The notes beneath the pieces were generated by a model. That model was not told where the DNA came from. It ran no database searches and saw only the letters and a program-made list of their open reading frames with translations. A stretch of DNA of 62,193 nt, filler included, from Dugesia japonica (Eukaryota): NCBI GenBank assembly GCA_001938525.1. It is 6 parts of 6 records of this genome, joined end to end, with 100 filler letters (N's around TTAATTAATTAA, not from the genome) between each part and the next. Parts side by side here need not be neighbours in the genome. Positions count along the whole stretch, not along the records: positions 53,279 to 62,193 come from MQRL01647886.1; 5 more parts are not named here. One strand, 5' to 3'. This document shows positions 27,191 through 62,193 of the stretch, in pieces. Positions within the stretch are counted from its first letter, which is position 1. Each line of letters starts with the position of its first letter. The position numbers and the translations under genes were made by a program.

Positions 27191-28397
27191 AAATAACGCA
27201 AGGATTAATATCGTCTGCATCTCAGGGTCACTAAGATTCCCTCTGAGCAGCACCAAGATAGATTCTGAGTTATAATGTTCAGTGATGGAATAATAAACTT
27301 TAATCTCGATAATTAATAATTAATTGTTTTAGAGGTTCATTATGCATCTAACAAAATCATAAGTACCCAAATAAATTTAACTTTAACGAGAAATATTACA
27401 TGTATTACTACTTCAGTTAATAATAACGATAGTACATGCCCCATTAGTAAATTTCGAAGTTGATAGCATTGATGGGTATAATAATTATTAAAATCACAAG
27501 AATATAGATAAAACAATAATATATTTTATAATAAATTTAATGAAGCTGACCTAATAACAATAAATTCCATCGCTAGTACCCATAATAATAATAGTGTTAC
27601 GAGTAAAAATAAGTAGGATACGAGAGGAACTACTAAGAAATTAGCATGGATAACATTCATTAGTTGACCCTCAGGACGGGGATACGGAGTCGTCAATAAT
27701 AGCAGCAATCGCCGATAAATGAGATTACCAATAAATAAATAACTATGTTAGAATGGTAAGAACCCGATACAATACTTTGGGTAGTCATAAAAAGTTTACT
27801 AATAATATGAATTATACTGATATTATTTAAAAACAATAGTTACCAATTTCAAGGATATAGTAAAAATAATAAAGATAAAATTAATACTTATAAATGACGT
27901 GAAAACAAAGAGAATCATCTGAGGGTCCCATTTATCAATTCTAAAAGATTTTTGCATTGGTTAGAGCTTAAATCATATCAATGTTAACGTTGCTGGACTA
28001 AGTAAACAGAAATAAGTAGATCAACGTCACGGATGTGGAAATACAAGGCAATTCTACTTGTTCACAGATCTTCGACGGAAATAATTATAGGCTACACTCA
28101 CACCAGGAATTTGCTTATACTTGAGAAATGGATTTACATAGCAACCGTGTAATGTATGGTTTATGAGTGTATTATTTGCTTAGTTACTCTGTAATATTTA
28201 TATAACAACCATGTATTATTTTCATAGTAACTGTGTAATATAAGGCTTATGGTTATATTTTTTTACATAGAATAATTTGATCATTATCATTTGCTTATCT
28301 TAGTTTTCTTTAATTTATTACATTTTATATATTTGTTTTATCGAATCAATTAAATTAAATCTATCAAAACTCCAATGTTCCTCTAAATTCATTAATT

Positions 28398-28626
28398 ATG
28401 ATAACCAATATTAGTTACAGAGGTGAATTGACACAAGAATTAATAAAGAAAATAAGCTTTCCTACAGGCAAACCATGTCAATATAAAGTCAAAAGTGATA
28501 AATTTACAATTATTTACCTCAGATCAAGAAAATTTAGAATAATGAGTTGTAAGAAACCATTTACACCACATGATTTAAACCCTATGATATAAAAAAATTT
28601 ACAATTACAGTCACTAATAATTGTTT
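28398..28626 (+). pseudogene. TBP-like gene, truncated second copy
   Basis: ITNISYRGELTQELIKKISFPTGKPCQYKVKSDKFTIIYLRSRKFRIMSCKKP aligns to 34261-34767; 1-nt frameshift at NP/YDIKNLQLQSLIIV, then homology stops. Confidence 0.8.
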
Positions 28627-28629
28627 CTT

Positions 28630-28985
28630 TATGCCTTCGCAAATAATTTGGAAAACCCTGTCCAAGGAGAAAAAGCGGACTTNNNNNNNNNNNNNNNNNN
28701 NNNNNNNNNNNNNNNNNNNNNNNNNNNNNNNNGTCCAAGGAGAAAAAGCGGACTTGAAAAATGAATAGAAAATATCTCTGCAGACCTCAATGTTAATGAA
28801 GACAAAGCTATTCAACAAATACCAGATGATGATAATGCTAGTGGTCATTTTGAAGTTAAGTATTTGAAATATGATCATTTTTATGGTAAGAGTTTAATTT
28901 ATTATTACAACTTTATTTAATTTTTTTTCATAGAAATAACTAAGGAGATATTAAATGAAAAGTTTCCAGAATATTATCCTGACTG
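28630..28985 (+). pseudogene. Polinton-arm spliced gene Z (copy A), intron 28886-28933
   Basis: DDDNASGHFEVKYLKYDHFY|EITKEILNEKFPE; homologous to 54140-54503 with the same phase-1 intron. Confidence 0.65.
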
Positions 28986-28989
28986 TGAT

Positions 28990-29860
28990 TGTTATGTAAA
29001 TAATACAAGGTATCTATGCAAAGAATATACTCACAAACTTTATAATATGGTTACTATGTAAATAATATACTTACAAACCCTATAATACATGGTTCAAATA
29101 TAAAAAATACAAGTTAACTATGCAACTAATACACTTAAAAACGGTTGTTATGTAAATATTACATGGTACCTAAACAAATAATATACTTGTAAACCTTATA
29201 TTACATGGTTAATATGTAAATAATATACTCATAAACCATATATTACATTGTTACTATGTAAAAAGTACCTTCATAAGCCTTCATATTACACGTTTGTTTT
29301 GTAAAAAATTCACTATTATATTTCATAAACCTGATATTTCATGGTTGCTACGTAAATAATAGAAGGTAGATATGCAAATAATGTACTCATAAACCCTATA
29401 ATACATGGTTGCTATGCAAATAATATACTAATAAATCCTATAGACTCATAAAAATATTTTTTTACAAGTTTTTTTATAGACCTATTAGTTATATATGGAA
29501 AGGTTCCATGAACTTATGATTTGTCAAAAAAAGTTCTGTTTTTTATCATTTGGTTCTAAGAAATGTTCTCAACTAATATGTTTTTTATAGAAAAAATTGC
29601 ATGACTAATACGTTTTTATTAAAAATTGCATCACTAATGATATATTTTATTTAGAATTGCATCGGTAATGAGAATTTTTATTAAACATTGCATCACTAAT
29701 GATATTTTTATTAAAAATGGCAACGCTAATGAGAATTTTTATAGAAAATTGTCACTAATATTATGCTTTTTTATAGAAAATTGTCACTAATATTATGCTT
29801 TTTTATAGAAAATTGTCACTAATATTATGTTTTTTATAGAAAATTACCTAGCTAATATGT
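28990..29860. repeat. Subterminal tandem arrays of Polinton arm
   Basis: ATAATATACTCATAAACCCTATAATACATGGTTGCTATGTAA-type units, then ~29-bp TTTTATAGAAAATTGCATCACTAAT-type units; same arrays at 38600-39200 and 54660-55310. Confidence 0.85.
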
Positions 29861-32800
29861 TTTTTGAAAAATTTTCTATGTGTTTTTTATCATTTTGTAA
29901 AGAAAAGTTTTAATTTGAATATTTTTTCGTGTATATATCACAAAGACTCCTCTCTTTGAAGTTTTTTGATAGATATATTTGATAACTGAAATATCTTAAA
30001 GACTCCCCTCTTTGAAGATTTTATCATGTTAATTAATTTAAATTAAATTTTAGACTGCCCAATATCTTGCAATAATATAAAAAAATATCAAGACTGCTCA
30101 ATATCATACATAAATATAAAGACTACCTAAATGTTTTAATAATAAATGTAATAGGCATGCAAATGGGTTACAATAGGCATGCAATTAGATTGCAATAGTG
30201 ATGCAACATAGCTGCAGCATACATTTACTGAAAATCATGCGCCTGAGAATTTTTTACATTTCCCGTCAAAAATTATTTCTTTTAAATTTCCAGCCAAAAA
30301 ATTTTTTTAAAATTTGCCGACAAAATATTTTTTTTAAGTTTCCGCAAAAATGAATATGATATTTATAGGTTCCATAGTAATATGGTCTATGATATTTAAA
30401 GGTTCCATTAATATGGTCAAAGATGTCTAATATGTGCTAAATAATATTTTAAAAAATGTCATGTATTGAATAAATAACATTTGCCTTAGAATTCCTGACC
30501 ATTTTGCGGATCTGAGTCTAGTCAACTATTGATATTATGACTGATTGTTTTTAAAACAATTTTAGTGGTATTCCATTATGTCTAAATGTGAAATGATTGA
30601 AGCACTGCAACAGAAGATGCGCATACTGTAATCGAGCTTAGCCTAGTTAAAACTACGCAAGCAAATCGATAGGTTCAATTATGAACGGACTCGAATTTGA
30701 TGCTAAAGACCTTGATGGATTCGCTCCGGCTGACTGTACATGTTGGAGGAGATAATGTAACGGTATTGAAGGAAAACAAGACTGTTACTGAAACAATGCA
30801 TGCAAATAATTATTAATAATTTTTTCAACTAATTAACTTATAAAAATTAATTAATATCTTATTCCTTAAATACCTGTAATTAAATACCTTTGACCATATG
30901 TATTTAGAATACCATGAGCATATGTATTAAGACTGTCGCATCCCATGCTAATTATAGTGACTGCCCCATCTCAATCAAAATATCAAGTTTGCCCTATCCC
31001 ATACAAAATATAGAGTCTCCCCATGCTAAATATAAAATCTCCCTCTCTCATGCAAGACCAAATAGAAATACTCCTTCATACCATTCAAAATATAGAGAAT
31101 CTCCCATTCTATCCAAAATATAGATACTTTACTTTTAAAATATCAAGACTGCCCCAGTCAAACATAAATATATTCTTCTCAAAAAAAAAATTAAAATTCC
31201 CTAAACCTCAAAAAAAAAGTAATTAATTATTAAAATTTGAATTACACACAAAATCCAACTATTAATAAAAATAAAAATTCCATTAATTAAAACAAAAGAA
31301 ATCAATTAATTAAATTAAAAATTCCCCCCTCTCCCTAAAAAAGAGATTAAAAAAATCGACCAAAAAAATATGGGAAAAAAATCGGCCGAAAAAAATATTT
31401 TACTCGTGGGTCTAGGTTTTCCAGTGCGCCACTATCCATTTTCTTGGCATTATATGTGCATTCGTATGTTTCACGGCAATGTCAATTGGAAGCTGTAAAA
31501 AAATTCATCCAAATTTGAAATTTTCGAGTAATCGGCTTGTTTATTTCATTCATAAATGCTATCGCATTGTTTTCACTAAAAATGGTTTCCATATAAACAA
31601 TGTTTTAAGTGATTATAAAAATAGTAAATGGTTAGTTATTTTTCTTGTTATACAATACCATTTTTAATAGGTTGACATAGCATGTGATCTATATGTGATG
31701 AATTTTTCTAGTCGGTTTTCATCTTTTTGTAATAAAACCGCGTCTATTGCACCAAAACTTACATCTATATGCAATATAAACATCTTTTTGATATCTGGAA
31801 AATTCAAATTCTGTGAGTTGGTAGATCCTATCTCACTTAAAGAAGGAGATTTTCTGATTCCCCTCTAGCGAGCAAAATGGTTTGTAACTTTTGAAATTTG
31901 AAATGTTTTTTATTATTTTTCTGTATTTATTGATTTTTCAAATTTGTTCATTTTTAAAAATTTTTTTTATTTTTTAATTTTTTAATTTATTTTAAAATAT
32001 TTTTAGAATTTTTTTCCCCAACTTTTTATTGTTATGGTGAAAAAATAGTATCGTTAGATGCGCAATGAAAAGACGAACAGTTTGATTGGCTTAAATTTTT
32101 AATCGGAGAATTAGGTGAAAAAGTTATTAAAGAGTTAAAATTTGAAAACCATACTCAGCCACCTATTTAAATTTTAAGCTTATATCATTTTATAGAGAAT
32201 GAAAAACTGTCTATACATTGCCTAAAGGTCTACTATCAAAAAACGTTTCCTTCAGGATGAAAAAATGTTTTACTCTAAACTGTGAAGTAAGTAGATAGTG
32301 GCGCACTAGATTACAGTGAATTATTAGTCACTGATTCTAGTAAGTAGCTAGAATAAGTTTTAAAATTTTAATGAAACATTTGGATGATTCATGATGAATC
32401 TTGAATGATGAGTCATTGAGATAATAAATCATCAAGTATAACTCATTTTCGAAAAAGAATTTTCAAAGTATTTTTTATTTGTATCATAACAAAGCTCCGA
32501 GTAGGCAAAGAACTTTAAAACAAAGACAATGACTCGTCGAATTTTTTTCTATGTTTTTTGGCTGTCTGGAAAACAAAGACTTCTCCTCCTCCGTTCGACG
32601 GTAAAATTTTCTTTTACAATTTCTAGTAAATTTTTCTTAATTTTTTAATTAGTTGGATTAAGGTCAAATTTTTCTTTCTAAATAGACAAACATTATTTTT
32701 TATGACATCAACTAATAAAAAAAACTTGTTAAAAATAGAAATTATTTACATAAATTAAATCATTTGGAATTTAAATTTCATTATTTTATGGTCACAATAC

Positions 32801-33789: not shown

Positions 33790-34100
33790 TTAATGATAAC
33801 AAAAATAGTCATTATAACAATTTAGTTCATCCAGATGGTTCTCCATGGCAACCATCAGATTAAACTTTGCGCACCCGATACAACCAGGTTCGCCGAATTC
33901 AGCATCCATGAAATCATTGATAATAAAATCCGGCAGCATTGGTTTCCTTTCTTCGTCCAGGATTCTCCGTTCTTCGCAAATATCAACAATCATTCCTTAA
34001 TTAAATTTATTAATAAAATTATAAAATTAATAAAAATCAAACCTCTTTTACTAAATTGTTCTTCCATTATCTTCATTTTTCTTGTATTTGATGAATTCAT
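33790..34100 (-). CDS. Polinton-arm small spliced gene X (exons 34100-34043 and 33995-33790), unknown function
   Basis: MNSSNTRKMKIMEEQFSKR|GMIVDICEERRILDEERKPMLPDF...GCIGCAKFNLMVAME; 47-nt GT-AG intron keeps the frame; homolog at 53318-53617. Confidence 0.65.
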
Positions 34101-34260
34101 ATTTAAAAATTACAAGAAATAATAATGAAATGCATTATATATATGTATAATAAAAAACCACAACGTAATATATTAATTATTTTAAATTTAAATATCTAAA
34201 TTTAAATTGTTATTTTTTGTACTTGAATTGTGAAAGTTTTGCAACCGTGTTGCGAATTTT

Positions 34261-34767
34261 CTAAATTTTATCAAGCAAATTAAACAAATCTGAAGTAATG
34301 TTATTCACATATCCCTGAAAATACAAATTTTTAAGTCCAAGTATCAATAGTTTTCCTGTTAAAAACACATTTACAGATAAAGGGTCATATTTTACAAGTC
34401 TTAGAGCAGGAAATAACTCTGGTTTGAACCAAAAGTATACTATTCTTGCNAATTTATACAAATTTATTGAAACTCCCATATTTACGACAATGAATAGCGA
34501 TTGTAATTGTAAATTTGTTATGTCGTAAGGGTTCAAATCATTCGGTTCCAATGGTTTCTTACAACCCATTATTTTAAATTTTCCTGATCTGAAGAATATA
34601 ATTGTATATTTGTCACTTTTGATTTGGAATTGACAGGGTTTGCCTAAAGGAAAGCTCATTTTCTTTGTTATTTCTTGCGCCATTTCACCTTGGTAATTAA
34701 TATTGGTTATTTTAATAAATGAATTAAAGAGTTCATTTAATTGATTCGTTAAAACAAATATAAACAA
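34261..34767 (-). CDS. Divergent TATA-binding protein (TBP)-fold protein encoded by a Polinton; start codon uncertain
   Basis: KITNINY ~ LQNIVS; TIIFFRSGKFKIMGCK ~ TALIFSSGKMVCTGAK; FKPELFPALRLVKYDPLSVNVFLTGKLLILGLK ~ [34 protein letters not shown]; both TBP half-repeats present. Confidence 0.85.
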   Translation of the reverse strand: MFIFVLTNQLNELFNSFIKITNINYQGEMAQEITKKMSFPLGKPCQFQIKSDKYTIIFFRSGKFKIMGCKKPLEPNDLNPYDITNLQLQSLFIVVNMGVSINLYKXARIVYFWFKPELFPALRLVKYDPLSVNVFLTGKLLILGLKNLYFQGYVNNITSDLFNLLDKI

Positions 34768-34925
34768 TTTATTGAATTATGAAAAGAAATTAAATAAAAA
34801 CAAGATGGAAAGATTAAGAAATGATGCAGTCCATTAAATTGTTTGTTTGTATGTCAATTATTGAAATCAAGGTTATTCAAGTCTATATTTAAAAACATAT
34901 AAATCGTGTAGATGAGGAGCATGGA

Positions 34926-35267
34926 TTGACTAAATCTCAATTTGGTAATATTAAAATGAAAATTATAAATGGTTTTTATTTTAATTGGAGCAAAAGATTA
35001 AAGCCAGGTGATGTTATTGTTGTTGATTATCTGTATCAGGAGGCAAACANNNNNNNNNNNNNNNNNNNNNNNNNNNNNNNNNNNNNNNNNNNNNNNNNNN
35101 NNNNNNNNATATTTATAACTCAAAATCTATTTCATCAAGGAGGTAGTCATAGAACTCGTAATTTAAACGTGCAATATTTAGTTTTATTCAAAAATCTTAG
35201 AGGTCAGACTATTGTTAATTTTCTAGCAAGACAAGCATTATCTAACTTTGAACTGAAATTTGCATGA
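34926..35267 (+). pseudogene. Polinton packaging ATPase (A32/FtsK-HerA family) relic
   Basis: VIVVDYL (degenerate Walker B) and IFITQNLFHQGGSHRTRNLNVQYLVLFKNLRGQTIVNFLARQ (cf. ITQNLF...RTISLNxxYxVLFKNPRD...LARQ); Walker A not seen. Confidence 0.9.
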
Positions 35268-35277
35268 AATTGTTGTA

Positions 35278-35615
35278 ATGAAGACAAAAATAAAGACAAT
35301 ATAGACAGATCCAAAATACCCAGCAGGTTTTCGAGGTGTAGAAAACTTGATGAAAGCAGATCAAAAAACGAAAAGAAAGACGGAAAGGTTTTTATCTGTT
35401 CATCTAGTGTACATTCTGAACAAGTCAATTTTGAAAAGATTTCCAACAAGAGCATATAAAGCTTGATATTGTTTTGATATTGTATTGATAATTTATGGTT
35501 AATGTATCTAATTGAAATGATTAATAAATTTTACAAGTATATTTTTGTCTTTTATCGTTGTATTCATTAGATTTACAAGAGATGTTCTATTTAAATCAAA
35601 GGGACCTGAAAGAAT
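35278..35615 (+). pseudogene. Polinton retroviral-like (RVE) integrase N-terminal relic
   Basis: MKTKIKTI*TDPKYPAGFRGVENLMKA...FLSVHLVYILNKSILKRFPTR, then YKYIFV/FIVVFIRF...LFKSKGPE (cf. YYDPxxPxSFxGxxKL...YTLHKP...FPRR; YILTVIDVFSR...PLKSK). Confidence 0.8.
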
Positions 35616-35699
35616 AAACAATATTATGTAAAATAATATGAATATGAAAACCAATTTGAATAGTAGCAACACAAATAAAATAACAAAACAAAAATTCAG

Positions 35700-36515
35700 A
35701 TGAAATCAAATAACTTCTTTACACTTTTACCTAGTAATAGTAGTCCACTAGTTCATCCAAATAATACTGCTAGTAATTACATTGTTGAGCTTTAAAACCC
35801 AATTTACATGGATGGTAGTTGGGAAGTAGCCTTGATGGATTTCACCTTTGGATATTCATCCATGCCGATTTACAGTCAAACTAGGATTGATTATGAATTA
35901 TTTACAATAATTGAGAAAAAACTAATACTTGATGTTAACAATAAAGAAGAAAAAGTTCTTTTAACTGTTAATTCTCAAGACAAATATAAAAANNNNNNNN
36001 NNNNNNNNNNNNNNNNNNNNNNNNNNNNNNNNNNNNNNNNNNNNNNNNNNNNNNNNNNNNNNNNNNNNNNNNNNNNNNTATTCTTTGAAAATCAGGAAAC
36101 TATAAAGAGATTTTCATATTTTAGCGGTGAATATGAAAGTATGGATATTAAATTAGTTTTAGATGCTAGTAAGAAGTTTAGAGATAAAACATTTTTTCTT
36201 GGCTTTCAACACTTTAAAAACGATGATTCCATTTAAAAAATAAGCATTAAATATTATTATCCCATTGTAGCTAAACACTCTTTTCAATTCGAATCTGAAT
36301 TGTATATAAAAGATTTTAATCAACTAAATGTCTTTTTTAAGAAACACCTTCCAAAGTTATTTAAAACTTTTGCATTAAAGCAAGATGAGATATTTGAATT
36401 TACATTAGCAAGTAGAACTAAAAGTCTTAAATTCGACAAGATCCTAACAAATACATTAGGACTAAAAAAATCACAATATACTCGAATGGTACTTTCAAAT
36501 ATGTCCTTCCTATGA
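35700..36515 (+). pseudogene. Polinton minor capsid/penton (PX) relic
   Basis: MKSNNFFTLLPSNSSPLVHPNNTASNYIVEL*NPIYMDGSWEVALMDF (cf. FYxTLPSNSS..FPxNTxxxFxxxLxxPIxLxGxWEVxL); C-terminal part missing. Confidence 0.85.
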
Positions 36516-36545
36516 ATTCAATGTCTTAATCTTAATGTCTTAATC

Positions 36546-37464
36546 GATGTAGAGTTTTTTATAAACGGATCTCAAACAGAATATTTGGATTTAAATGATA
36601 CTTTATTGTATATTAAAGTAAAGGTAGTTGATAAGGATGATAAAGATTTGACTGATAAGGATGATTCNNNNNNNNNNNNNNNNNNNNNNNNNNNNNNNNN
36701 NNNNNNNNNNNNNNNNNNNNNNNNNNNNNNNNNNNNNNNNNNNNNNNNNNNNNNNNNNNNNNNNNNNNNNNNNNNNNNNNNNNNNNNNNNNNNNNNNNNN
36801 NNNNNNNNNNNNNNNNNNNNNNNNNNNNNNNNNNNNNNNNNNNNNNNNNNNNNNNNNNNNNNNNNNNTATCTCTATGTGGTTCATTGCAACTTGATTTCA
36901 TGAATCAACCGAAATACCTTATTCCAGGTGTCAATGTTCATTTTCGATTGAAACGAGCAGATGCTGATATTTGTTTGGAATCTACAGCCAATGAACCTAC
37001 ATATGTATTACTAGATGCAAAATCAATGGTTAGACTTGTACGAGTTGAACCCTCAGAAATAATTGCTCATCAAATGGGCCTCAAAAAGCAAAATGCTGTT
37101 TATCCAATAAGAACCAAGGAATTCGTTGCATATGCAACTATTAAAGATGGTACATCGTTTTATAAGGAACAAATCTTTTGTAATCGTCGATTACCTAGCT
37201 TTACTCTGGTTATATTTCAAAGTAGTGAACAATATAATGGTAGTTATAAAAGTTCGATTTCGACATTTCAAAATCTAGATGTTTTTTCTGTTTTGTTGTC
37301 GAAAAAGAATGATTATCGAGAAATATATACTCAAGATTTTACAAAAAATAATTTTGCAGCAAGATGTATGCAATCTACAGTATGAAATATGGGATATTTG
37401 GATAATTTATGGAGTATTTGAAAAAGAAATTCAGATTAAAGAAAACGGAACAGCATTGGTGTAA
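36546..37464 (+). pseudogene. Polinton major capsid protein (PY, double jelly-roll) relic
   Basis: DVEFFINGSQTEYLDLNDTLLYIKVKV; LQLDFMNQPKYLIPGVNVHFRLKR; AHQMGLKKQNAVYPI; RLPSFTLVIFQSSEQYNGSY; C-terminal IIYGVFEKEIQI. Confidence 0.9.
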
Positions 37465-38133
37465 ACCATAATATGTATTTTTGAAATACTTGTAATAAAG
37501 TAATAGGTATTGTTTAATTTAGTAATTCTATTCACATTGAACGGAGTACATTAATGTTACTTAAATCATCTTATTTCAGTAAACAATGCCTTAATTGTGA
37601 ATACTCATACCACAAATCTATGTGAAGAACACTAGATAGTGGTTTACAATAAAAGAAGCAACATTAAATATGAAATATTTATTTGCATGTATTTGTATTT
37701 TAAGAAATATATGTTTTATTGTAAATCAATCTTGTTCATTTTTTCTTTTTAATAATACTAAGAAACAAAAGTACTCTATTTAACTATACTTGTTATTATT
37801 TATTTAATTTTGTGAACATGTCATAAACATAAATTTAGCATGACACGAGCATGCATTTACATATCTTCCTCATATTGCATGGTTATTTTGTAAATAAAAC
37901 TTATAATACAAGGTTACTTTGTAAAAAATACACTCATCAACCAACAGTAATTAAAAAACTATTTACTTATAAGTTTTTTAATATAAATAATGCAAGAAAG
38001 AAACAAAATTATTATTAAAATCTATTTATTAAACCACAAAATTAATAATTACATTAATTCCGACCAAGCAAATAAAATATCACAATGGATGTCAATAAAG
38101 TTACAACAATAAATTTATTCCTATTTTGGATCT

Positions 38134-38361
38134 TTAATTCTTCCTTAATTTTGTCCATGAATATTGATAGGACAATGAGTTCAACATAGTTCTCAATAGA
38201 CCATTGTCGATCCTGCTTATGAATTGAATTTCGTCAACGGATCCACTGGTAATTTNATCTGCCGATTTTTTAATTTGTCTTTCCAATTGATTCATTTCTT
38301 CAACGGATCCACTGGTAATTGCATCTGTAATTTTTTTAATTACTCTTTCGATTTGGTTCAT
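38134..38361 (-). CDS. Small Polinton ORF (75 aa) with internal 22-aa duplication, unknown function
   Basis: MNQIERVIKKITDAITSGSVEE / MNQLERQIKKSADXITSGSVDE; ATG start. Confidence 0.45.
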   Translation of the reverse strand: MNQIERVIKKITDAITSGSVEEMNQLERQIKKSADXITSGSVDEIQFISRIDNGLLRTMLNSLSYQYSWTKLRKN

Positions 38362-38599
38362 TTTATAATAGTAATTTCGAATTTTAAAAGTGACTTATTT
38401 TACGAAACCTGTTGTTTATATACTTGCTGATATACATACATCCTCGTTATTTGTTAGTTTTTATTAGTCGTTTCATGTTTTAAAGGAAATGAATGGTTAT
38501 TATTCATTTTGATTTATATGATTGAATGTAATTTGTTTTAAATGATATGATTTGTTATCTAAAATATTCATGAACATGATTCGATCATGCATTTTGCAT

Positions 38600-40244
38600 G
38601 GTGGCCTCTTATTACACGGTTAATATGTAAATACTCATAAATATTGAAATATATAGTTACTATATAAATATTACTCTGATAAGCATTATATTACACACTT
38701 GCTATGTAAATAATACAAATAATATACTCATAAACACTATAATACAGGGTTACTATGTAAATAATACATGGTAACTAATCAAATAATGCACTCATAAACC
38801 CCATAAGACAGGGTTATACATTCATAATACATGCATAATCCTTAAAATACATGGTTTCTATGTAAATAATACAAGGTAACTATACAAATAATATACTCAT
38901 AAACCCTATACACTGATAAATATATTTTTTTATAAGTTTTTTAAATATATTTATATTAATTATATATTAAAAGGTTCAATTAAATTATGATTTTTATGAA
39001 AACAGTTCTATATTTTTATCATTTTGTTCTAAGAAATGTTCTCAATTAATATATTTATTATAGAAAACAATGCATGACTAATATGTTTTTTTATTAAAAT
39101 TGCATCACTNATGAGATTTCTTTAGAAAAATTGCCACTACTAATATGTTTATAAAGAAAATTGTCACTAGTAATATGTTTTTATGAAAAAAGTTCTATGT
39201 TTTTTATCATCTTGCATAGAAAAAATTTTAAAATATTTTATCATGTAAATATCGCAAAGACTCCCCTTTTTGAAGTTTTTTGATTGATATGTTTTATCAT
39301 GTAAATAACACAAAGATTCCCCTCTTTGAATATTTTATCATGTTAATTTTAGACTGCCCAGTATCTTGCAATAATTTAAAAAAATATCAGGACTACCTCA
39401 ATAATTTAATAATAAATGCAATATGGATGCAATATGAATGCAATACAGCAACACGTGCCTGGGAATTTTATTGATTTTAAAAAAAATAAATAATGCCTCA
39501 ATCTCTTAAAAATATCAAGACTACCCAATATCCTGCAATAATACCCCATCTAAAGTAAAATATAAAGAAATAATCAATAATGCTTCAATCACGACTGCCC
39601 AATCTCTTACAAAAATATCAAGTCTGTTCCATCCTCTGCAAAATATAGAGACTACCCATACCATGTAAAATATCAAGACTGTCCATATCTTGTAATAATA
39701 TCTTACAATATATCAAGACTGCCGATTTCTTGTTATAATGTCTTACAAAATATCAAGACTACCGGATATTTTTTTAATAATATCTTACAAAATATCAAGA
39801 CTGCCCGATATCTTGTTATAATATAAACATTNNNNNNNNNNNNNNNNNNNNNNNNNNNNNNNNNNNNNNNNNNNNNNNNNNNNNNNNNNNNNNNNNNNNN
39901 NNNNNNNAAATTTAATTAGATTTAATTAAGTTTAATTAAAAATTTCCCCCACCAAAAAATAAATTTTTAAATTTCCCGCCAAAAAATTTTATGTTTCCCG
40001 CCAAAAAAAATATCAAGACTCTCCTCTTCCCAGTTCAAAAAATATTAGAAACAAATTTTAAAATTTAAAATACACACACACCCAGGAAAAAAAATGATCC
40101 GATCAAAAATGTTTTGATCCCAAAAATCTTAGAAAAAAAACCATCACAAAAATACCACCACAAAAATTTGTTCACAATCGTAAGCAGTTGTCAAGCAGTG
40201 GGGGGTCCCCTCAAATTGTGACCGCGCGCTACTTTCCCCCTACT
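38600..40244. repeat. Long terminal (inverted) repeat region of Polinton copy B with nested tandem arrays
   Basis: Colinear similarity with 54655-56870 and 28990-31437: ACTCATAAACC arrays, TTGCATCACTAAT arrays, AATATCAAGACTGCCC arrays, TTTCCCGCCAAA, AAAATACCACCAC, CTACT end. Confidence 0.85.
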
Positions 40245-43680: not shown

Positions 43681-43731
43681 NNNNNNNNNNNNNNNNNNNN
43701 NNNNNNNNNNNNNNNNNNNNNNNNNNNNNNN

Positions 43732-43793
<62 letters not shown>
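43617..43793. repeat. (AAT)n microsatellite spanning a gap
   Basis: Pure trinucleotide run. Confidence 0.95.
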
Positions 43794-43797
<4 letters not shown>

Positions 43798-44099
43798 TTA
43801 AATAGCCTAAATAATAGTTCAAACCCAATAGTTTTAATAACAAGTCGTTATCATCATAATTATCAAACTGTTTCCAATAATCTTGCGTGAATTTTGGATA
43901 ATTTCATGGACAATTAAAAATAATAACCCCTAAATTGGGAATTATTTAGAATTAAATATCAATCAGTCTAGGAAAAATCATAAATGTTTTCCAGTTCAAA
44001 TTAAATGTCTTTTTTCAAATTCAATTTTTTAAATTTCAAATTTAATGTTTGTAAAATTATATATATTTTGAAACAAAACAACAACTAATGAACTAATAA

Positions 44100-45000: not shown

Positions 45001-45022
45001 CATAACATTTTAGAAATATATT

Positions 45023-49506: not shown

Positions 49507-51338
49507 TCACACAGGGCGAAATTACACGGGAAAGAATTACACATAAAAAGTTTAGAAAGTTAATAAATTATTAAATTTTAAATTTATAATCAAATATTAA
49601 AAGTTTAGTAAAATGAGCTATAGACCACAAGAACTCTTGTCGTCTATGAGAATCATAATTTTGTACAATCCTTCAAATACGTTGTTTTAAGTTTGTGTAA
49701 CGAATACGTCCATGGTTCTTTTGATAAGTTACATGCTGTAAATAGTTTGTATGTTGCAGGGACAATTCCTTGATGATGTTATTCAGAAATTTCCAAATTC
49801 TTGGATGGGAACACTGAAAAAGTGACTGAAGTCCGTAGTGCTATCCTTCTATACAGTTTATAGTTCTTGCTATGCAGTTTGCTGCTGATTCCTTATAGTT
49901 CCAAATTGAAATATTAAACAATGGTAGTTTGTAAGTTCCGTTTCTAAGTTGCCTACCTCTAATATATGTAAGTTCAAAATAGGAGAGGATTTTGTCAATT
50001 TGTTCATTTAATTTATTTACAACAGAGAATAGTTCAGAAACTTTTAAAAATGCTTCCACGACCTCTTCTTCTGGTAACAAAGCAAAAGATAACAACATTT
50101 TTATATGTATAGCAAAAGGCTGATTAGATTCGTACAAAGTTTTCGATCCACACTCATGTACTTTACGCAGAATCGATTGGGATAGATGAAAAAAACATCC
50201 GCCAACTTTAGTATTTTCAAATACAGTACGAAAGGCTTTCGTTGCTGCAGTTTCAAAATCTGTCAAGATTTTTCGTGGCCGTGCTTAAGGAATTATTTCC
50301 AGTAACATATTTAGCATTTTTCCGTATATTCTTTCTTCTTTCCCTGTTAATAGAGCCATTAAACAAGGAAAAGCGACGCCTGATTCGTATTGAACATGAA
50401 TACTATATAATTGGTAATATATTTCTGGAGCAACTTTAAATGTACAATCTGCTAGCCAAAAATCATTAACTACAAGAGGATCTAAAAGTGTTTTTATGAC
50501 CAAGTAGTATTATGCGTTCTGGGTCATCTACACCAGAATCTTGAATAATTCGACTTGCATTCATCAATGGTATTTCAAAATTTTTATTAGTAGGATTTGC
50601 AGGAGGTTTTTCAAGTGTCCTAGCTTTAGATGCATTTAATCGTTCTGTTAAGGAACATTTCTTCGGTAAACTATATCTTTACACCATCTATATTATCAGC
50701 TATGACTGATCGAGCAGTTGCCCCTAGATGCGACATTTTTATCTTCATTATATTTGTAAGTTTGTGAGATTCTGCTTCAAAAGCCCTGTTTTCATGACAG
50801 TGGTCTGAAGGTTTACGAATAATCTTGTTGTCTTTAGTATGGAACAACGATCGACAACGTAAAGTTCTGAATTTTGCACATCGCCAATGGATAGTCCCAT
50901 TAATAGTTTCACGATGGCGAATAAACTCAAATCCTCTATAAATAATAACTTAACGACTTTTATTACTAAAACTATGCTCAAAATTATCTATGGTGTAATG
51001 AAATTTTTTTATTTAAATTAAACAAAGTATATAAACAAGAGAATAATTTTATATATAGTCAAGTAAATTTAAAAAATTTATAATTTAAATTTTATTAATT
51101 TAGTATAAGTTTTATAAAATATTTTTATGTAATTTTTTCCAATGTAGTCCTGACACGTGTAATTTTTTTTGTTTTATAATTATAAATTTTTTATAATTTT
51201 TTTTGTTTTATAATTATAAATTTTTTATAATTTTTTATAAATTAATTTTAATAAGTAAATTTAATAAATTTATAATTTAAATTTTATGTGTAATTTTATC
51301 TTGTGTAATTTTTACCCGTGTAATTTGGTCCTGAGACC
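49507..51338 (-). mobile_element. Mutator-like (MULE) transposon with decayed FLYWCH-MULE transposase
   Basis: HWRCAKFRTLRC; WLADCTFKVAP..YQLYSIH; TDFETAA..AF...GCFFHLSQ; RTINCIEG; imperfect TIRs CAGG..AAATTACACGGG / CCCGTGTAATTTGGTCCTG. Confidence 0.88.
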
Positions 51339-53278: not shown

Positions 53279-53317
53279 ATATAATGCATTTCATTATTAT
53301 TTCTTGTAATTTTAATA

Positions 53318-53617
53318 ATGAATTCTTCAAATACAGGAAAAATGAAGATAATGAAAGAACAATTTATTAAGAGGTTTGATATTTATAATTTTATTAAAAA
53401 ATTTAATTTAGGAATGCTTGTTGATATATGCGAAGAACAGGGGATCCTAGACGAAGAAAGAAAACCNATGCTCTCGGATTCTAGTGTCAACCAATAAATG
53501 GATGCTGAATTTTGCGAACCTGATTATATTGGGTGCACAAAGTTTAATCTGATGGTCGCTATGGAAAAGCATCAGATTGAACAACAGAATTATAATAATT
53601 ATTTTTGTTATTATTAA
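53318..53617 (+). pseudogene. Gene X (copy C), disrupted
   Basis: MNSSNTGKMKIMKEQF...MLVDICEEQGILDEERKPML...MDAEFCEPDYIGCTKFNLMVAMEKH with a stop and indels. Confidence 0.7.
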
Positions 53618-53814
53618 TAAAAAATAAATGTATTATTATTAAGTCTTTGTTTTATTTATTTAGTTTTTTTATTTAGTTTTTAAAATATTGTATTAAAAAA
53701 ATGTTTTTATAATTAAAACTAACAAGACATTTTTCATAAATATTTATTTAATTTTAAAAGATAACACAAAGTAAATATTAATTAAACAAATTTAAAAAAA
53801 CAAATTAATTGATT

Positions 53815-54026
53815 TCTTATAGCCTTTAGTCTCCACTTGAATCATCAATTGACTGTCGTCTTCATAATTGATTTCATCTTGTTCTTTAAAGACTATATAA
53901 ATAGTCTCATTGACTTCAATTTGTCTACCCAATCTTGCAAACATGGCTTCCGGTATATTTATATCCTACTCATGAATTCCAGATAGAAGCAAACTAAATT
54001 TGGATCTTTTTATTGAAACTGGTTTC
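53815..54026 (-). pseudogene. Gene Y exon relic, unknown function
   Basis: ttttattttag acceptor, then KPVSIKRSKFSLLLSGIHE*DINIPEAMFARLGRQIEVNETIYIVFKEQ... Confidence 0.4.
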
Positions 54027-54139
54027 TAAAATAAAATAATAATTCATAATGAAATAAAAATTTATTACTTTGAAGTCATAGATAATTAGAGTCTTCAAAA
54101 AGAACATCTTGTAATTATGGGAATCTGTAATTTTCCAAA

Positions 54140-54503
54140 GTTCCACGATGATTGTGATGGTGATTGTGGTTATACTGAAATTGAATACAGAAACTATGAA
54201 AATTATTATGGTAAGAGTTTAATTTATTATTACAACTTTATTTAATTTTTTCTAGAATTAGTGATGGAGATATTACATGCAAGGTTTCCGGAACTTCTTC
54301 ATGAATATATGCGGTTGATGATGAATGAATATTTTAATCATTTATTGCAGACAAAAGCAATAGATATGTTTCAAGTTATAAACAATTTCATCATAGAACT
54401 TCAATCGAATTTCCCTTTCAATGAAAAGTTGAACCATTATGAAATTTTAAAAGAAAAACTTTTAAAGATGACTCTAGAATATGAGAAAAAAATGTTTAAT
54501 TAA
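54140..54503 (+). pseudogene. Gene Z (copy C), intron 54211-54255
   Basis: DDCDGDCGYTEIEYRNYENYY|ELVMEILHARFPELLHEYMR...; 5' part missing. Confidence 0.65.
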
Positions 54504-56870
54504 TAAATGTATTATAAATAATTATTTTATTGGATAATTGTTTTCTTTTATTTTTTTATAATTAGTAAATTAATAAAGTTTTTAATAATACTAAGTAAAC
54601 AAATACAATATTTTGAATAAATTAATTTTATATACATTAACTTTGAATGGTGACATCTTATTACACGGTTAATATGTAAATAATGTACTCATAAACCATG
54701 AAATATAGGGTTACTATGTAAATATTACCCTCATAAGCATTATATTACAAAGTTGTTATTTAACTAATACAAGGTAGCTATGTAAATAATATACTCATAA
54801 ACCCTATAATACATGGTTGCTATGTAAAAAATACAAGGTAACTGTGTATATAATAAATTCACAAACCTTATAATACAGGGTATCTATACAAATAATACAC
54901 TCATAATCCTTATAATACCTGGTTGCTATATAAATAATACAATGTAACTATGCAAATAATATACTCATAAACCATATATACAATCATATCAATATTTTTT
55001 TATAAGTCTTTATATAGACTTATTAGTTATATATGGAAAGATTCCATGAATTTATGATTTTCATGAAAGAATGTTCTATGTTTATATCATTTTGTAAAGA
55101 AATGTTCTTAGCTAATATATTTTTTATTAAACATTGCATTGCTAATGATATTTATTATTAAAAATTGCAACACTAATGAGACTTTTTATTAAAAATTGCA
55201 TCGCTAATGAGATTTTATATTTAAAATTGCATCACTAATATGTTTTTTTAAAGAAAATTATCACTAGTAATATGTTTTTTTAGAAAATAACGTAGCTAAT
55301 ATTTTTTTTATGAAAAAAGTTTTATGTTTTATCATCTTGTAAAGCAAAGCTTTTATTTGAATATTTTATCATGTAAATATCTCAAAGAATCTCCTCTTTG
55401 AAATTTTTGATAGATATGATTTACCACAAAGAATATTTTATCATGTTAATTTTAGACTGCTTAATTTCTTGCAAGACTGCCTCAATGTTTTAATAATGAA
55501 TGCAATAGGGCAACACGTGCCTGAAAATCACGTGCATTGAAATTTTTTATTAATAAATGAAATAGGTATGCAACTCAGATGCTAAAAGAATGCAACACAC
55601 ATACATTGAATATCACATGCCAATTAATTTTAGACTGTCCCATCTAAAGTAAAAATATTTTTAAAAAAATCATTAATGCCTCAATCTCTTTTAAAAATAT
55701 CAAGACTACACAATATCTTGCAATAATATCAAGACTTACCTATCTAAAGTAAAACATAAAGAAATAATCAATAATGCTTCAATCAAGACTGCCCAATCTC
55801 TTACAAAAATATCATGCCTGTTCCATTCTATGCAAAATATAGAGGCTTCCTATACCATGCAAAATATTAAGACTGCCCATACCATGCATAAATATCAATA
55901 CTGCCCCATCTCATACATAAATATAAAGTCTTCTCAAAAAAAAAATTTTACTTTCCCTCCCAAAAAAAAATTTTTAAATTTCCCGCCAAAAAATTCAATA
56001 ATTTCAAGACTCCCATCTTCAGTCATAAAAAATATTAAAAACAACCCTATCACTTAAAAATACTCAAAAATACTCAAAAATACATGATTCTTACAAAAAT
56101 ACCATTACATTCAATAAATTCATCATTTTAAGCAAAATACAGCATTTTTAACCAAAATAAAGATTTCAAAACATTATTACGTCTTACCCAGAAAGTTGAA
56201 AAATTTCAATTAATTAATTAAAAAAATTTGATAATTAATTCTCTTTCCACACATACCTTTTTCCCCTCCCGAAAAATATTTTTAATACACTTATACTACT
56301 TACAAATATCAACCATTCAAATTCGATTACAACCAATCAGAAATTAAAGCACAATCGACATTCCAAATATTCCCCATCACATTACCTTTCCAACAATATA
56401 TCAACCAAAAAGATCCATCAATCCCATACAAACATGCACCCTCTCAAAAAAACCCACGATAACTCTTACAACTGTGCCCATGCGCTACCATAGTTCTAGG
56501 ACAAACCATTCATCCAACCTCATAAGTTCTTAAGACAATATATAGACCAATATATATTGTCCAACAACAACCAAATCTTAAAAACTCCAAAAAAAATATT
56601 TTCAAGATCTATCAACAATCCATCGAGTCCAAATTCATTAGCAACCCAAACACACGCAAATTTTAAAATTTAAAAATATACACGTACACCCCTAGGATAA
56701 AAAAAATGATCCGATCAAAAAAAAAATTTTAACCCCAAAAATCTTAGAAAAAAAACTAGCACAAAAATACCAGCACAAAAATACCAACACAAAAATACCA
56801 CCACAATCGTAATGTGTTTCCGTGCCCCCTCGGGGTGTAAATTATGCTTGGTCGCTACTATCTACCTACT

Positions 56871-58860
56871 AAATAAATATACCAAAGTTTAACTTGCACA
56901 TAGCATTTTTGGACATACCTGATGCCTTCGGTAGTATAATAATTAACCATATTCTTGGTTTGTTGGCACAGATGGATGTTACTGAAAAGGCTACTGGTTA
57001 ATTCAGAGCTCTTAATTCTGACTTCTCAAGCAATTACATCTGCAATAAGGTTTCTACTAACCCTATTGCTAACAGAAGGGGTTTTATACAGAGCTGTCCT
57101 CTATCTATGTTGTTGTATAACATCGGCATTAANNNNNNNNNNNNNNNNNNNNNNNNNNNNNNNNNNNNNNNNNNNNNNNNNNNNNNTCATCCCATATTTT
57201 GTATGGCATATCCAGATGATCTAGAACTTGTAGCCTCTTCCAAGATAAGCCTTCAGGATTTGGTTGATGTCGATGAACAATTCGCAGATTAGTCACATCT
57301 TGATTTTCGACAAAGCCAACGCGCCCATTTACCTTGTCCAATAAATGGCTAGCTTGCTCAAATTGTTGTTAAGGGAGAAGTTATCCCAAAGCTGTTGAAT
57401 AAAGACTCTTATCGCTATCTTGAGACCGATTTTAATTGTGAACACTTTCAAACACCAACGGGATCTTGAGAAAATTTCTAACACAGTTCTGTATCCTTGG
57501 CAGAAAATCCACGCGTATCGAACCTTTATTCATTCTAGATTCACGTTCGCGTTCAGACATTTTAAAATTCCGTTATGAAAGTTTGACTGCAGTAAGTATT
57601 ATGAAAATGGGATTCTTCTTCGTCCACGAGTTATCGATTAGAGCATTCGTTCTAGCATTCGTCAGATTTTATCTTTTTCAACTAATGCTACTTCTGACTA
57701 TTTATATAGTTCCCGTAAACTTGGGACAGTTGCAAGAGACGAATATTCCGTACAATCTCTAGTTTAGGTGTTTCAAACCTTTGATTGCCCTGACAAGATT
57801 GTACGGGATGTGGCTAGCAACGATCTTGCCCATGCCGCGACTAAGCATCTCAAGCGTTTCGAATTGTGTTCCATAGATGAAGCACTTGATTGGCTCTGCA
57901 TAAATACTACTAACTCAAATCTCATGTGCTGGTGGTCTAAAGCCTATGATGCAATTGCTCATGAATTATTTGATTTCGTTTAGATACCAGAGAGGTCTGA
58001 CCAAGCTGCTTCATAATCTTTTGAATTGGGCTCACATAGGAAAGTGGAGCATTCTGTATAAGCAGAAAGTCTATCAACTGCAATTATTGACTTCTTCTCT
58101 TAACTAAGCTGCTATTTGATGGATCTATCAATATGGAAAGCTGAAGTTTCATTTATAAGGCAAGTACAAGCACACTTTATGTAGGGAGCAATCATGGTAT
58201 GCCTTTTAAATCAGGCAGGAAATGATCTATTCATCTTGAAACTCAAGCACATGTTTTCTGTCGTTGTGGTCCTTCTTCTTCATTCCGATTTGGAAAGCAC
58301 AATGATGTGCTTGAGCTGCTTGTTAGATTTGTTAGATCCAACACCAACTATAAGGTCATTGCCGATCAGACTTGTGAATTTGTCAACAAAACTGATCGCA
58401 TCGATCTTCAGCTGATAAATATCAGGACTAAGCGTGTTATCCTTTTAGATGTGAAGATTCCCTATGACACTTCCAATAATATCAAACTAGTCAGAGATAA
58501 TAATATCGTCAAATTCAAGGCTAGTGTGATTAGGAAATTTGAGTTGATATCGATAAGGAAATGCATTGCCTGGTCCAGCAAACAATGGCGCTTACATAAC
58601 GGTGCAATGGAAAATTCTGATCAAAAATGTGGAATTGTTTATGACAGTGAGTCTAAAATGAAAAAGTTAAAATAGGTTCCTAAATTTAGGGTGTATTCTG
58701 AGTTTTNNNNNNNNNNNNNNNNNNNNNNNNNNNNNNNNNNNNNNNNNNNNNNNNNNTTTTTATTTTTTTTGTATTTTTTTGTTTTCTTACAGCATTTCCG
58801 CTTGCCGAACCAGGACTCAATTAATCCTGGAACGAGTTTTCTGGTCTGAAAAAAGACCTT
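56871..58860 (+). mobile_element. Decayed RLE-type non-LTR retrotransposon (RT to endonuclease to 3' UTR), 5' end cut at the Polinton terminus
   Basis: LHIAFLDIPDAFGSI; GVL/QSCPLSMLLYNI; MAYPDDL; KHNDVLELL; RIDLQLIN...VILLDVKIPYD; same family as 2650-4180. Confidence 0.9.
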
Positions 58861-59915
58861 TNCATATCTTGGCGTATTAATACCTGTGAATTTGAGTTCG
58901 ATTCATATGATTGTTCATTTATTTTTTNCACGTTTTTTCGAATTTTGTTAGCTTCATATACAGTTTGATGATTTTAAGTGATTATATTAAGAATAAACGA
59001 AACATTCTCTGTCTAATAGATACTTTGATGTTCAAATTTGAGATACGTTTTATTTTTTTTCCAAATTATATTATTGGTCCTCGGGGACTCCCAAATTAAG
59101 TACATCTTTTTTCAATAACCTTTTATCTACATGGTTTGGGGATTTTAAGTTTACATATTCGGAATCAGTGAAAATATCTCTATCTCTACCTTTTTAATCA
59201 ATTTTGAGAAACGTTTTTAATTTTTGAAAAAAGTTACCAAATCCGGGAAGACAGCTGTATATCTTCGTTAGGAAGCATTTTTGTCTAGACGATATTTCAA
59301 CTTTGTACAGTCACCTTTACCTACTAAGTTTGATGATATTAATTTGAAACCATACGAGTTATATACGCAGAGAAAAATGAGCACTAAAATTAAAAACTTG
59401 AGATTTTTCACCACAAAACCCTATTTATTTCATCTCGGATAAACTTTGACGAAAACTTTGGCAGAAAATTCTCNNTCTAATAGACATGGCTATTTTATAA
59501 AAAAAAAGAAAAAAACTTTTTCGAAAAATTTTTATATGCGAAAATTAATATCCATCGAATTCTGCATCGATTGGTGTAATAATCTCGACAAAAAAACGTT
59601 TCAAAAATTATCTAATTTTGGGAAGTTATCATAGAAAATTTGATTTAAAAATTTTAAAAATCTACAAATTGAAACAAATTTAACATTTTTCGTAAAAATT
59701 CAAACCAAACGGACCAATCCTGAGGATATTATCGCTCAAATTCACCAAAAACTAACCCTTGTGAGAAAATAATTCACCACGATTGTAAAAAAATTACCAA
59801 AACTAACCATGCGAAGAAATAATTGACCGAATCTTCCAAAAAATTATCCAAATTAACTAATTCCAAGATAATAATTGATCAAAATTAAAATTACTATCTT
59901 TAAATTAAAATTCAT

Positions 59916-60098
59916 AGTAGGCAGATAGTGCAGCACTGGTATAGCAACACATTTGAAAATTTCTTGAAATAATTAAGCACATTTTTAAAATTTTTTAAAA
60001 AACACAAGCACAGTTTACAAATTTTTCAAACGTCAAAATTATGAGGGGAGGGCAGGTATACTTTATGGACTGTGCCAGTACTGCACTATCTACTTACT
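59916..60098. mobile_element. Miniature element bounded by Polinton-like termini
   Basis: AGTAGGCAGATAGTGCAGCACTGG ... CCAGTACTGCACTATCTACTTACT (24-bp inverted pair, 3 mismatches). Confidence 0.7.
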
Positions 60099-60713
60099 AG
60101 AAAAGTAGTAATAATTATTTAATTTTGATTTATTAATAAAGTTATTATAACTTATAGACAGTATGAACCTTGATTGTTGTCCTATAAATATCTTTGTGAA
60201 ATAATCTATTATTATAAACTTAATATTATGCGTTGTATACCATACAAAAAATTTTAAGTTATTCAAATGCAAACAATAAAAATAATAAAATGAAAATAAA
60301 CAAATGCAATATAACAGCAATTAGACACAATTTTCGCTTTGAAAATAGTTCAAAGTTCTCTCACAATTCTTTAATAAAACTAAAACAATAAAAACGTGAT
60401 ATCTGAAAATCATTTTAGCAATATTATTAAATTTGTTGTTTCTTTAAATAATTCAATTAGAATTAGTGATATTTTTTTTAATATTTCGCAAATAATTTTT
60501 GTGAAAACTACACTTCATTTAAACAAAAATTTAAAAATAATTTTTTATTAATGCATATTTATTTACTAATGAACAGTTTCATTTTGATTTATCAATCAAA
60601 TTAAATTGATTTAACAACATCAATTTACATCTGTTACTATTAATATTTGACATATCTTATTTAAACAAACTTATCTGGTTTAAATTATCACTTATTTTAA
60701 ATTATTATGGAAT

Positions 60714-62033
60714 ATGAACTTTGGAAATAGTTTGACGAGAAAGTTTGTAATTAATAAAGGTAAAAACAACTCAATAAAATTGAAAGGAAATTCTAAATTT
60801 TATGAAAGTGGAAACAATGATGAAAAATCTATAGAAATAATTGAAAATGAAAGATTATCGAGAAATTATTTAAAACCAACTTTTCAAGTGAAAGACAGAT
60901 TTTTTTGTATGATTTGTGATAAACTATTAAAACAACCGGTTCAATCAGATTGTGGATGTCGGTTTTGTGATAAATGTTACGATCAACATTTTTCATTAAC
61001 ATCAAATAAATGTCCAACAAAAGATTGTTGTAAAATCGAAATCAAAAATAAACATCGAGATCGAGAAATTGAAAGAGAAATGGACAAATTTTCGATTTCA
61101 TGCATCAATGATAACTGTACNNNNNNNNNNNNNNNNNNNNNNNNNNNNNNNNNNNNNNNNNNNNNNNNNNNNNNNNNNNNNNNNNNNNNNNNNNNNNNNN
61201 NNNNNNNNNNNNNNNNNNNNNNNNNNNNNNNNNNNNAAAATGATTGTATAAATCGAAAAATTCAATGTAAATTTTGTTTGAAAGAAATGTCAGTTTATGA
61301 GGCAAAGAATTACCATTTTAATATTGAAAACATCTCTGAATATTGTGAAAAAGATTCTGGAAAATGTCCATACGATTGTTCTCCAGATATTCATAAGAAT
61401 ATAAAGTTTCATTTAGTAATGAAACATACAGATAAATGTAATTATTTTAATAAAAATCCTTTGGAAATCGGTAAAAAATTTTCCATTTATGAAAAAGAAA
61501 TCGTAAATATAGATGAAAATGAGTCTGCAATTGGTATTAAATCAGAAATTGAAGAAATCAGAAAAAATATTAAAGTTAAACGTTATGTAGGAACGAGATA
61601 TATTTGGAAAATTACAAGATTTTCGAATTATTTTGAAAAATCTAAATCAAATCAACAAACGTATATTTTAAGTCCACCATTTTATACTGAAGAATTGGGT
61701 TACAAAATTTACGTAAAAGTTTATCCATATGGTGATGGAACAGCGAATGGAAATCATTTATCAATATTTATTGCCATCGCAAAAGGAAAGTACGATCCAC
61801 TTTTACAGTGGCCATTTAAACATAAATTTAAACTTCAAATTTTAAATCAAAATAACAATAAAAACCATACAGAATGTTTTCGACCAGACTCTGAATCACC
61901 TTGTTATCAGAGACCATTAAAAGATATTAATGTAGCAACTGGTAATCCGAAATTTATAAGTTTTGAAAAATTATTTGAGAATGACGATCTGATTAAAGAT
62001 GATATTTTGTTTATTAATTGTGAGATATTTTAA
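60714..62033 (+). CDS. TRAF: TNF receptor-associated factor (RING, TRAF Zn fingers, MATH/TRAF-C), apparently intronless
   Basis: CMICDKLLKQPVQSDCGCRFCDKC RING; YIWKI...SPPFYT...GYKIYVKVYPYGDG...HLSIFIAI.KGKYDPLLQWPF...FRPD...FI....DDILFI MATH domain. Confidence 0.95.
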   Translation: MNFGNSLTRKFVINKGKNNSIKLKGNSKFYESGNNDEKSIEIIENERLSRNYLKPTFQVKDRFFCMICDKLLKQPVQSDCGCRFCDKCYDQHFSLTSNKCPTKDCCKIEIKNKHRDREIEREMDKFSISCINDNCXXXXXXXXXXXXXXXXXXXXXXXXXXXXXXXXXXXXXXXXNDCINRKIQCKFCLKEMSVYEAKNYHFNIENISEYCEKDSGKCPYDCSPDIHKNIKFHLVMKHTDKCNYFNKNPLEIGKKFSIYEKEIVNIDENESAIGIKSEIEEIRKNIKVKRYVGTRYIWKITRFSNYFEKSKSNQQTYILSPPFYTEELGYKIYVKVYPYGDGTANGNHLSIFIAIAKGKYDPLLQWPFKHKFKLQILNQNNNKNHTECFRPDSESPCYQRPLKDINVATGNPKFISFEKLFENDDLIKDDILFINCEIF

Positions 62034-62193
62034 TTTTTTTTAATTTGTTTATTTTATAATCTACCTAATCCTTATTTTAATTGATATAATTGATATAATT
62101 GATGTAATTAATTAATTGTTATATATATATAAGTAATAGAAAAACTACTTTTAAAATTCAAGCATCATAGTGACCCCTTAAAAAGCCTACCCC

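Follow-up and report, generated by a model that had tools for sequence, protein, structure and literature searches.

A Polinton/Maverick family of Dugesia japonica contains an amplified sub-lineage that keeps capsid genes and has lost the integrase core, the protease and pPolB

In the genome of Dugesia japonica a sub-lineage of one Polinton/Maverick family has lost the integrase core, the protease and pPolB and was amplified nonetheless, probably by means of enzymes that complete sister copies supplied in trans. The sub-lineage is represented by copy B in the DNA analysed here (the window), a stretch of 62,193 nucleotides, filler included, in which six contigs of assembly GCA_001938525.1 (854 Mb, 648,594 contigs) are packed together. 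The window holds three copies, all of them decayed insertions of this family:

25212-33635, copy A
33736-45022, copy B (contig C604755, from its base 1)
53279-62193, copy C (contig C647886, from its base 1; the right part of the element is missing)

An earlier note on this DNA had proposed that copies B and C together reconstruct a two-ended element, C running outward from gene X on the plus strand and B from gene X on the minus strand, both into the same arrays and CTACT. The alignment agrees with this. Positions 33737-34140 of B are the reverse complement of 53670-53279 of C (85% identity over 404 columns, E 7e-129), the array arms of the two are 71-85% identical when compared blockwise, and a shared terminal motif, ...CTACT, closes both arms (B at 40244, C at 56870). 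Because each contig starts there at base 1, the open ends of B and C are assembly breaks, and since the two are only 85% identical they are two insertions and not the halves of one. The same end and flank as in copy C occur on another contig, either allelic or duplicated; a 94% match to the end of C, considered as its opposite terminus, was rejected as it represents the same site. Searches with TBP and with the major capsid protein (MCP) each gave at least 150 matches, mostly carrying stops, and the family is thus large and decayed. Every copy examined is now a fossil.

The window also contains other sequences. Non-LTR retrotransposon-like fragments, which gave no Pfam match and presumably carry reverse transcriptase and restriction-like endonuclease motifs, lie beside the terminus of C (56940-58680). 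An intronless TRAF-like gene (RING, MATH) is found at 60714-62033, a Tc1-like transposase remnant at 46290-47342 and a MULE/FLYWCH transposase remnant at 49841-50949.

The layout given by B and C, a two-ended element with inverted termini, was found in the same order on single contigs elsewhere. C302669 (L001+L021) and C644189 (L022) carry the left arrays, Z, Y, X, TBP, ATPase, MCP and the right arrays, inverted; X, Z and TBP do share an element with the capsid genes. Integrase and penton likewise occur on single contigs together with inverted arrays, Z-Y-X, TBP, ATPase and capsid genes. Both outer termini are present on one contig in C623656 and in C298600, where the ends are inverted and not direct, and the Y-X-TBP-ATPase junction is crossed by many independent contigs. 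In the sister copies the order, pieced together from overlapping single contigs none of which holds an entire undisturbed element, is TIR-Z-Y-X-TBP // ATPase-small ORF-integrase-penton-small ORF-MCP-protease-ORF-internal array-acidic ORF-pPolB-ORF-TIR; we tentatively take the two small conserved ORFs to be PW and PZ. When its parts are summed the complete element measures ~19-20 kb. A layout with two such ends is standard for Polintons. On C619617 (L069, L104) inverted copies of the internal array flank pPolB, and TBP and ATPase are turned round with respect to MCP, a kind of inversion to which the arrays may give rise.

Both arms end in terminal inverted repeats (TIRs):

38593..40244, + strand, right terminal inverted repeat of copy B
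54640..56870, + strand, left terminal inverted repeat of copy C, composed of 22/42-, 31- and 27-bp arrays, a unique block and the terminus ...CTACCTACT

The arm is 2.23 kb long in C and 1.65 kb in B, which is without a 540-bp block. Among other copies the right repeat measures ~1.3 kb in several that carry pPolB and ~2.2 kb in B-like ones, and is longer elsewhere; gene Z is included in the right arm of some B-like copies, which lengthens the repeat. The TIRs of ~2 kb described in the earlier note are therefore real as inverted repeats, but their length is not fixed. The ends of C623656 are 83-96% alike, and those of C298600 only 67-75% in long blocks. A tree built from 27 rows of the TIR unique block does not separate left from right ends, as is expected of true inverted repeats. 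A perfect 6-bp target-site duplication was found at neither of the two both-ended contigs, the copies being ~13% diverged; the target sites match at 3/6 positions (5/6 with an alternative end) in one and at 2/6 in the other. No further both-ended element was seen among 20 more contigs.

Smaller or nested elements with similar ends were encountered as well. A 544-bp element (L120:698-1241, across an N gap) ends in the same motif and has TAAATT as a perfect duplication. In the window a gene-free element of 183 bp with AGTAGG-type inverted ends (59916-60098), without a 6-bp duplication, is possibly a miniature derivative. In one B-like copy the MCP gene is interrupted by the end of a related Polinton (L001:7128-8585); L209 and L082 contain comparable nested termini.

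It had been suggested to look for family copies that possess pPolB and protease, and the sister copies carry both. The left terminus through pPolB is contained on C547312 (L119+L074), while protease, pPolB and right terminus lie on C589842 (L064+L103) and L080, and C619617 unites TBP, capsid, protease and pPolB. A profile of the polymerases of other families finds pPolB remnants adjoining the family MCP, and the family pPolB DNA matches 40/40 scored candidates; the sister pPolB matches that of an intact relative at 35-57%. Full-length integrase remnants in L061, L072 and L074 match the integrase of the metagenome element L127 (Pfam rve and Chromo) at 47-53%. Translation revealed the full integrase core, as well as the protease after MCP, in the same pPolB-bearing copies. 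At the level of the family, then, pPolB, an rve integrase, an ATPase, a cysteine protease, both capsid proteins and TIRs are all found, as is proper to a Polinton/Maverick. A genome search with PF03175 yielded 97 matches; 20 fetched contigs were without any DNA feature of the family, and the proteins of the PF03175 contigs gave no tblastn match to the family genes. As Pfam also misses the pPolB of L127 and L141, this search is no test of the absence of pPolB.

The complete copies L066, L069, L072 and L075, compared with L061, display two penton types ~25% apart in DNA and one MCP type. Other Polinton families of the genome (L041-L060) have open pPolB frames of 1,250-1,500 aa; in L053 a remnant of a Monjiviricetes-type fusion glycoprotein adjoins pPolB, and L042 contains a phospholipase A2-like ORF. 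A pPolB remnant in the first stretch of the window (7259-7962) belongs to a different Polinton family.

The structural arm of copy B consists of the following features:

34893..35255, + strand, packaging ATPase fragment, 59% to the ATPase of L127; Pox_A32 matches in sister copies
35239..35690, + strand, integrase remnant with a lineage-wide core deletion of ~630 bp, junction near 35600
35700..36490, + strand, penton (minor capsid) remnant that lacks its 3' part; the next small conserved gene is deleted as well
36516..37403, + strand, major capsid protein remnant, in pieces of 44% and 83% to the MCP of L127
37520..37670, + strand, protease remnant with shared 41-bp and 154-bp deletions
38080..38365, - strand, small ORF of ~105 aa with a hydrophobic C-end; its homologue directly follows TBP in intact relatives

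MCP, penton and protease are what we take these genes to be from familiar motifs and from synteny with intact relatives; no library gave a name to the corresponding proteins of L127. The order ATPase-INT-penton-MCP-ORF, which had been read in B before, stands, but the genes are fragments and the integrase is without its core. Likewise, B is without pPolB as had been stated, but it keeps a broken protease, and the absence of both genes does not extend to the sister copies. Thus pPolB, the integrase core and an intact protease are all missing from copy B itself. No remnant of the family pPolB was found inside the element at any B-like locus.

These losses are shared. The integrase junction, at which ~630 bp are removed, is identical in 11/11 B-like copies listed. 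Junction probes applied to 140 records of the genome itself found 15 deleted and 6 intact integrase junctions and 18 deleted and 13 intact protease junctions, in a sample that is skewed by B-derived queries and with groups set by hand from gene context. The protease deletions are nested (41 bp in 6/6, 154 bp in 4/6 B-like rows). Since the B-like copies share their deletion junctions, the losses preceded their spread, and amplification after the losses implies that the enzymes were probably supplied in trans. For B, the shared junctions together with the pPolB-bearing sisters support the earlier proposal of a deletion derivative or helper-dependent lineage.

Divergence between the B-like and the complete copies differs from gene to gene. 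Net divergence is 0.004 in MCP (19 vs 10 copies) and 0.005-0.006 in the ATPase, and amounts to 0.047 in the small ORF, 0.051 in the N-part of the integrase and 0.075 in the N-part of the protease; in the 5' part of penton it is also low (0.009, from just 2 complete copies). At synonymous sites net divergence is 0.007 for MCP, 0.104 for the integrase N-part and 0.131 for penton. A tree of the small ORF and the integrase N-part separates the two groups at 100/99; the MCP and ATPase trees mix them. MCP retains a small group signal, which was reached by 18/2000 shuffles. The capsid and ATPase genes of the B-like group show no group-wide lesion: over 305 codons of MCP one stop is found in 3/19 and one frameshift in 3/20 copies. 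Frameshifts in penton, scored against the reference copy, are common to 7-9/16 B-like copies and may be either errors of that reference copy or real lesions of the lineage. Within-group dN/dS of MCP does not differ between the groups (0.59 B-like, 0.61 complete), which offers no sign that selection acted on the capsid once the enzymes were lost.

Copy A differs from this sub-lineage in that it contains the following element:

28132..31444, + strand, TBP mini-element: inverted array, TBP, Z fragment, arrays and terminus, without structural genes

In copy A and four other loci the same junction is present (5/5 rows), at which the inverted array is joined directly to the region upstream of TBP. 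A sixth locus with TBP and arrays, L086, has a different structure and was left out of the junction alignment. Copy A represents a third amplified lineage, which is TBP-only. It had been cited in support of the order TBP, Z, TIR; it does support that order, but not a linkage to the capsid genes.

The left arm comprises genes X, Y and Z and the TBP-like gene:

33793..34110, - strand, gene X remnant of copy B
53318..53615, + strand, gene X remnant of copy C, ~95 aa, reverse complement of the X of B
53790..54110, - strand, gene Y remnant of copy C, pointing into the element; predicted T7 gp2.5-like OB-fold ssDNA-binding protein
54146..54503, + strand, gene Z remnant of copy C, in which the acidic N-part is mostly deleted
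34261..34710, - strand, TBP-like gene of copy B, ~150 aa, Pfam TBP above cut-off

Gene X has no match in Pfam or the Atlas, PHROGs gave nothing useful, and a profile of the small upstream ORFs of relatives did not match it. Gene Y is read in the other direction from X and Z. A profile of 25 metagenome ORFs matches 13 Y ORFs of sister copies; the Y relatives adjoin TBP and resemble NCLDV clusters in the Atlas. A metagenome relative of Y was modelled with a pLDDT of 91.8. Compared with 48,161 chains, this model gave DUF2815, Enc34 SSB, T7 gp2.5 and ASFV CP312R as its top four matches (Z 7.5-6.7, rmsd 2.9-3.5, 103-113 aligned) and the next match at Z 5.2, values under 8 being common according to the tool. 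Foldseek returned no match at E<=0.001, with the same gp2.5-type proteins ranked high. On the strength of this model Y is predicted to be a gp2.5-type ssDNA-binding protein. Gene Z of copy C contains a 45-nt GT-AG intron candidate at 54211-54255, of which the donor and acceptor flanks are constant in 12 copies and the spacer is variable in length; it is likely that Z carries a short intron. The searches gave no name for Z or for the acidic ORF that precedes pPolB.

The model of a sister TBP ORF (pLDDT 92) matches TBP structures in Foldseek (E 3e-10, TM about 0.7) and forms a two-lobed saddle with PELF and FxSG motifs, which is the TBP fold; at the sequence level the C-lobe alone aligns and the N-lobe is shortened. 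Of 202 candidates 190 were homologues of the TBP-like protein. A Polinton core gene is located near TBP in 39/70 metagenome loci (the first 70 of 80), and in 19/22 of those of at least 4 kb. TBP-like and Y-like genes are found repeatedly in Polinton-like contigs from metagenomes, two of which, L127 and L141, are near-complete TBP-bearing elements with pPolB. TBP and ATPase are on the same strand in 22 metagenome loci and on opposite strands in 5, so that the divergent layout seen here is the rarer one. A scan of viral_contigs with the TBP alignment gave no match. The cargo of TBP-bearing relatives includes a ubiquitin-conjugating enzyme (L127:225-722), a dual-specificity phosphatase (L133:3975-4316) and KilA-N (L168:7067-8032).

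A putative regulatory motif was noticed in both arms:

38410..38445, - strand, upstream motif TATATAAA of copy B, preceding the small ORF; also found upstream of gene Y

The motif has 42 matches in the fetched loci, in copies that are related and counted with no shuffle control, and it is likely to be a core promoter. RNA reads on L074 are few (3072 of 13.6 million and 154 of 10.5 million) and come from both strands, with TBP, X and Z outside the coverage. The left arm had earlier been regarded as an accessory cassette transcribed away from the structural genes. Its accessory character is supported by the TBP fold and the predicted ssDNA-binding protein, but gene Y points inward.

Polintons replicate by protein priming from their TIRs and integrate by means of an rve integrase. 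In this family the terminal repeats would serve as the cis signals for protein-primed replication and for integration, helper and dependent genomes would replicate together and exchange their MCP and ATPase modules, and the array repeats would promote the rearrangements. The left arm would act as a nuclear accessory module, with Y as a coat on displaced single strands and the TBP-like protein at work on the TATA promoters of the element. That dependents and helper exchanged the capsid module is the reading that we prefer, and not a result. A rival explanation, which departs from the main one only as to the role of the retained capsid genes, sees in the B-like copies a non-autonomous transposon derivative of the ordinary sort, in which the ends alone matter and capsid and ATPase are passengers, whose likeness to the complete copies is due to earlier purifying selection or to chance gene conversion. 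The equal dN/dS of MCP in the two groups fits this explanation, as do the penton frameshifts if they are really shared, and the TBP-only minis and the 544-bp element with its perfect duplication show that ends alone can spread; its chances seem to us slightly below even, because the shared lesions are concentrated in integrase and protease with few in MCP (stop in 3/19, frameshift in 3/20), and because the net synonymous divergence of MCP is 0.007 against 0.104 in the integrase N-part and 0.131 in penton.

Other explanations fare worse. It appears most improbable that the element without pPolB is an autonomous lineage that employs host or other enzymes in the manner of Polinton-like viruses: the contigs spanning the element offer no substitute replicase or integrase, the integrase core is deleted and close sisters that do have pPolB share the same ends, even if the many copies and the retention of capsid, ATPase, TBP-like and predicted ssDNA-binding genes would be in keeping with autonomy. 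That the tiling of B and C is an artefact of unrelated fragments or of mis-assembly might be thought of in an assembly as fragmented as this one (648,594 contigs), B and C being separate insertions, but it is hardly credible given that independent contigs cross Y-X-TBP-ATPase and that two hold accessory and capsid genes between inverted arrays.

A dependent sub-lineage served by complete sisters thus accounts best for copy B. A more far-reaching and rather unlikely extension would be an endogenous virus community of three tiers: complete helpers; satellites with working capsid and packaging genes, which recombination with the helper would renew and which would travel in particles; and TBP-only minis whose viral TATA-binding protein could tune the shared promoters, the TBP-plus-SSB module marking a wide, undescribed Polinton clade with a nuclear transcription programme of its own. 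The view that animal Polintons are viruses is still argued solely from the genes that they contain. An enzyme-less lineage whose capsid and ATPase match those of its helper would, if true, be fossil evidence of co-replication and possibly of shared particles. For two accessory genes of Polintons, the TBP fold and the predicted ssDNA binding suggest functions that can be put to the test.

The text on animal Mavericks/Polintons (Barreat & Katzourakis 2021, PMC8097293) describes pPolB, an rve integrase with chromodomain, ATPase, protease, two capsids, two small ORFs and TIRs, most copies being degraded fossils; in gene set, TIRs and fossil decay the present family is alike. It differs from the elements described there by an AGTAGG-type terminus in place of (AGT)2 or (AG)3, by the extra left module with a TBP fold and a predicted ssDNA-binding protein, by the likely intron in Z, intact vertebrate elements being reported there as intron-free, and by having amplified sub-lineages whose members have core deletions in common. 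The gene classes found here are also those of adintoviruses and MELD viruses (Starrett et al. 2021, PMC8502044). The text of that paper mentions a TBP-like gene in some MELD element, in the legend to its Fig. 5 (section on the non-animal dataset), whereas here such a gene recurs across a Polinton clade (39/70 metagenome loci). Tlr1 elements and Polinton-like viruses (PMC5499653) possess, like the B-like copies, a capsid module without pPolB; according to the part of the text at hand they carry a helicase-based replication module, whereas the B-like copies have no substitute and have pPolB-bearing sisters. Neither the TBP plus SSB module nor a capsid-keeping derivative is described in the text of the open literature searched, which included PMC8502044 and its preprint, PMC8097293, PMC5499653, PMC6431247, PMC11131425 and PMC12220804, and the figures and tables of Starrett et al. 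may contain this TBP family. What is new is modest: a dependent lineage that keeps its capsid genes, minis that carry only TBP, and the module of TBP and predicted ssDNA-binding protein. In defective-interfering and satellite viral genomes, as in non-autonomous TIR derivatives, the cis ends are kept, the enzymes are lost and a helper brings about the spread. The B-like derivative is unlike these in that it loses the enzymes while keeping most of the virion module.
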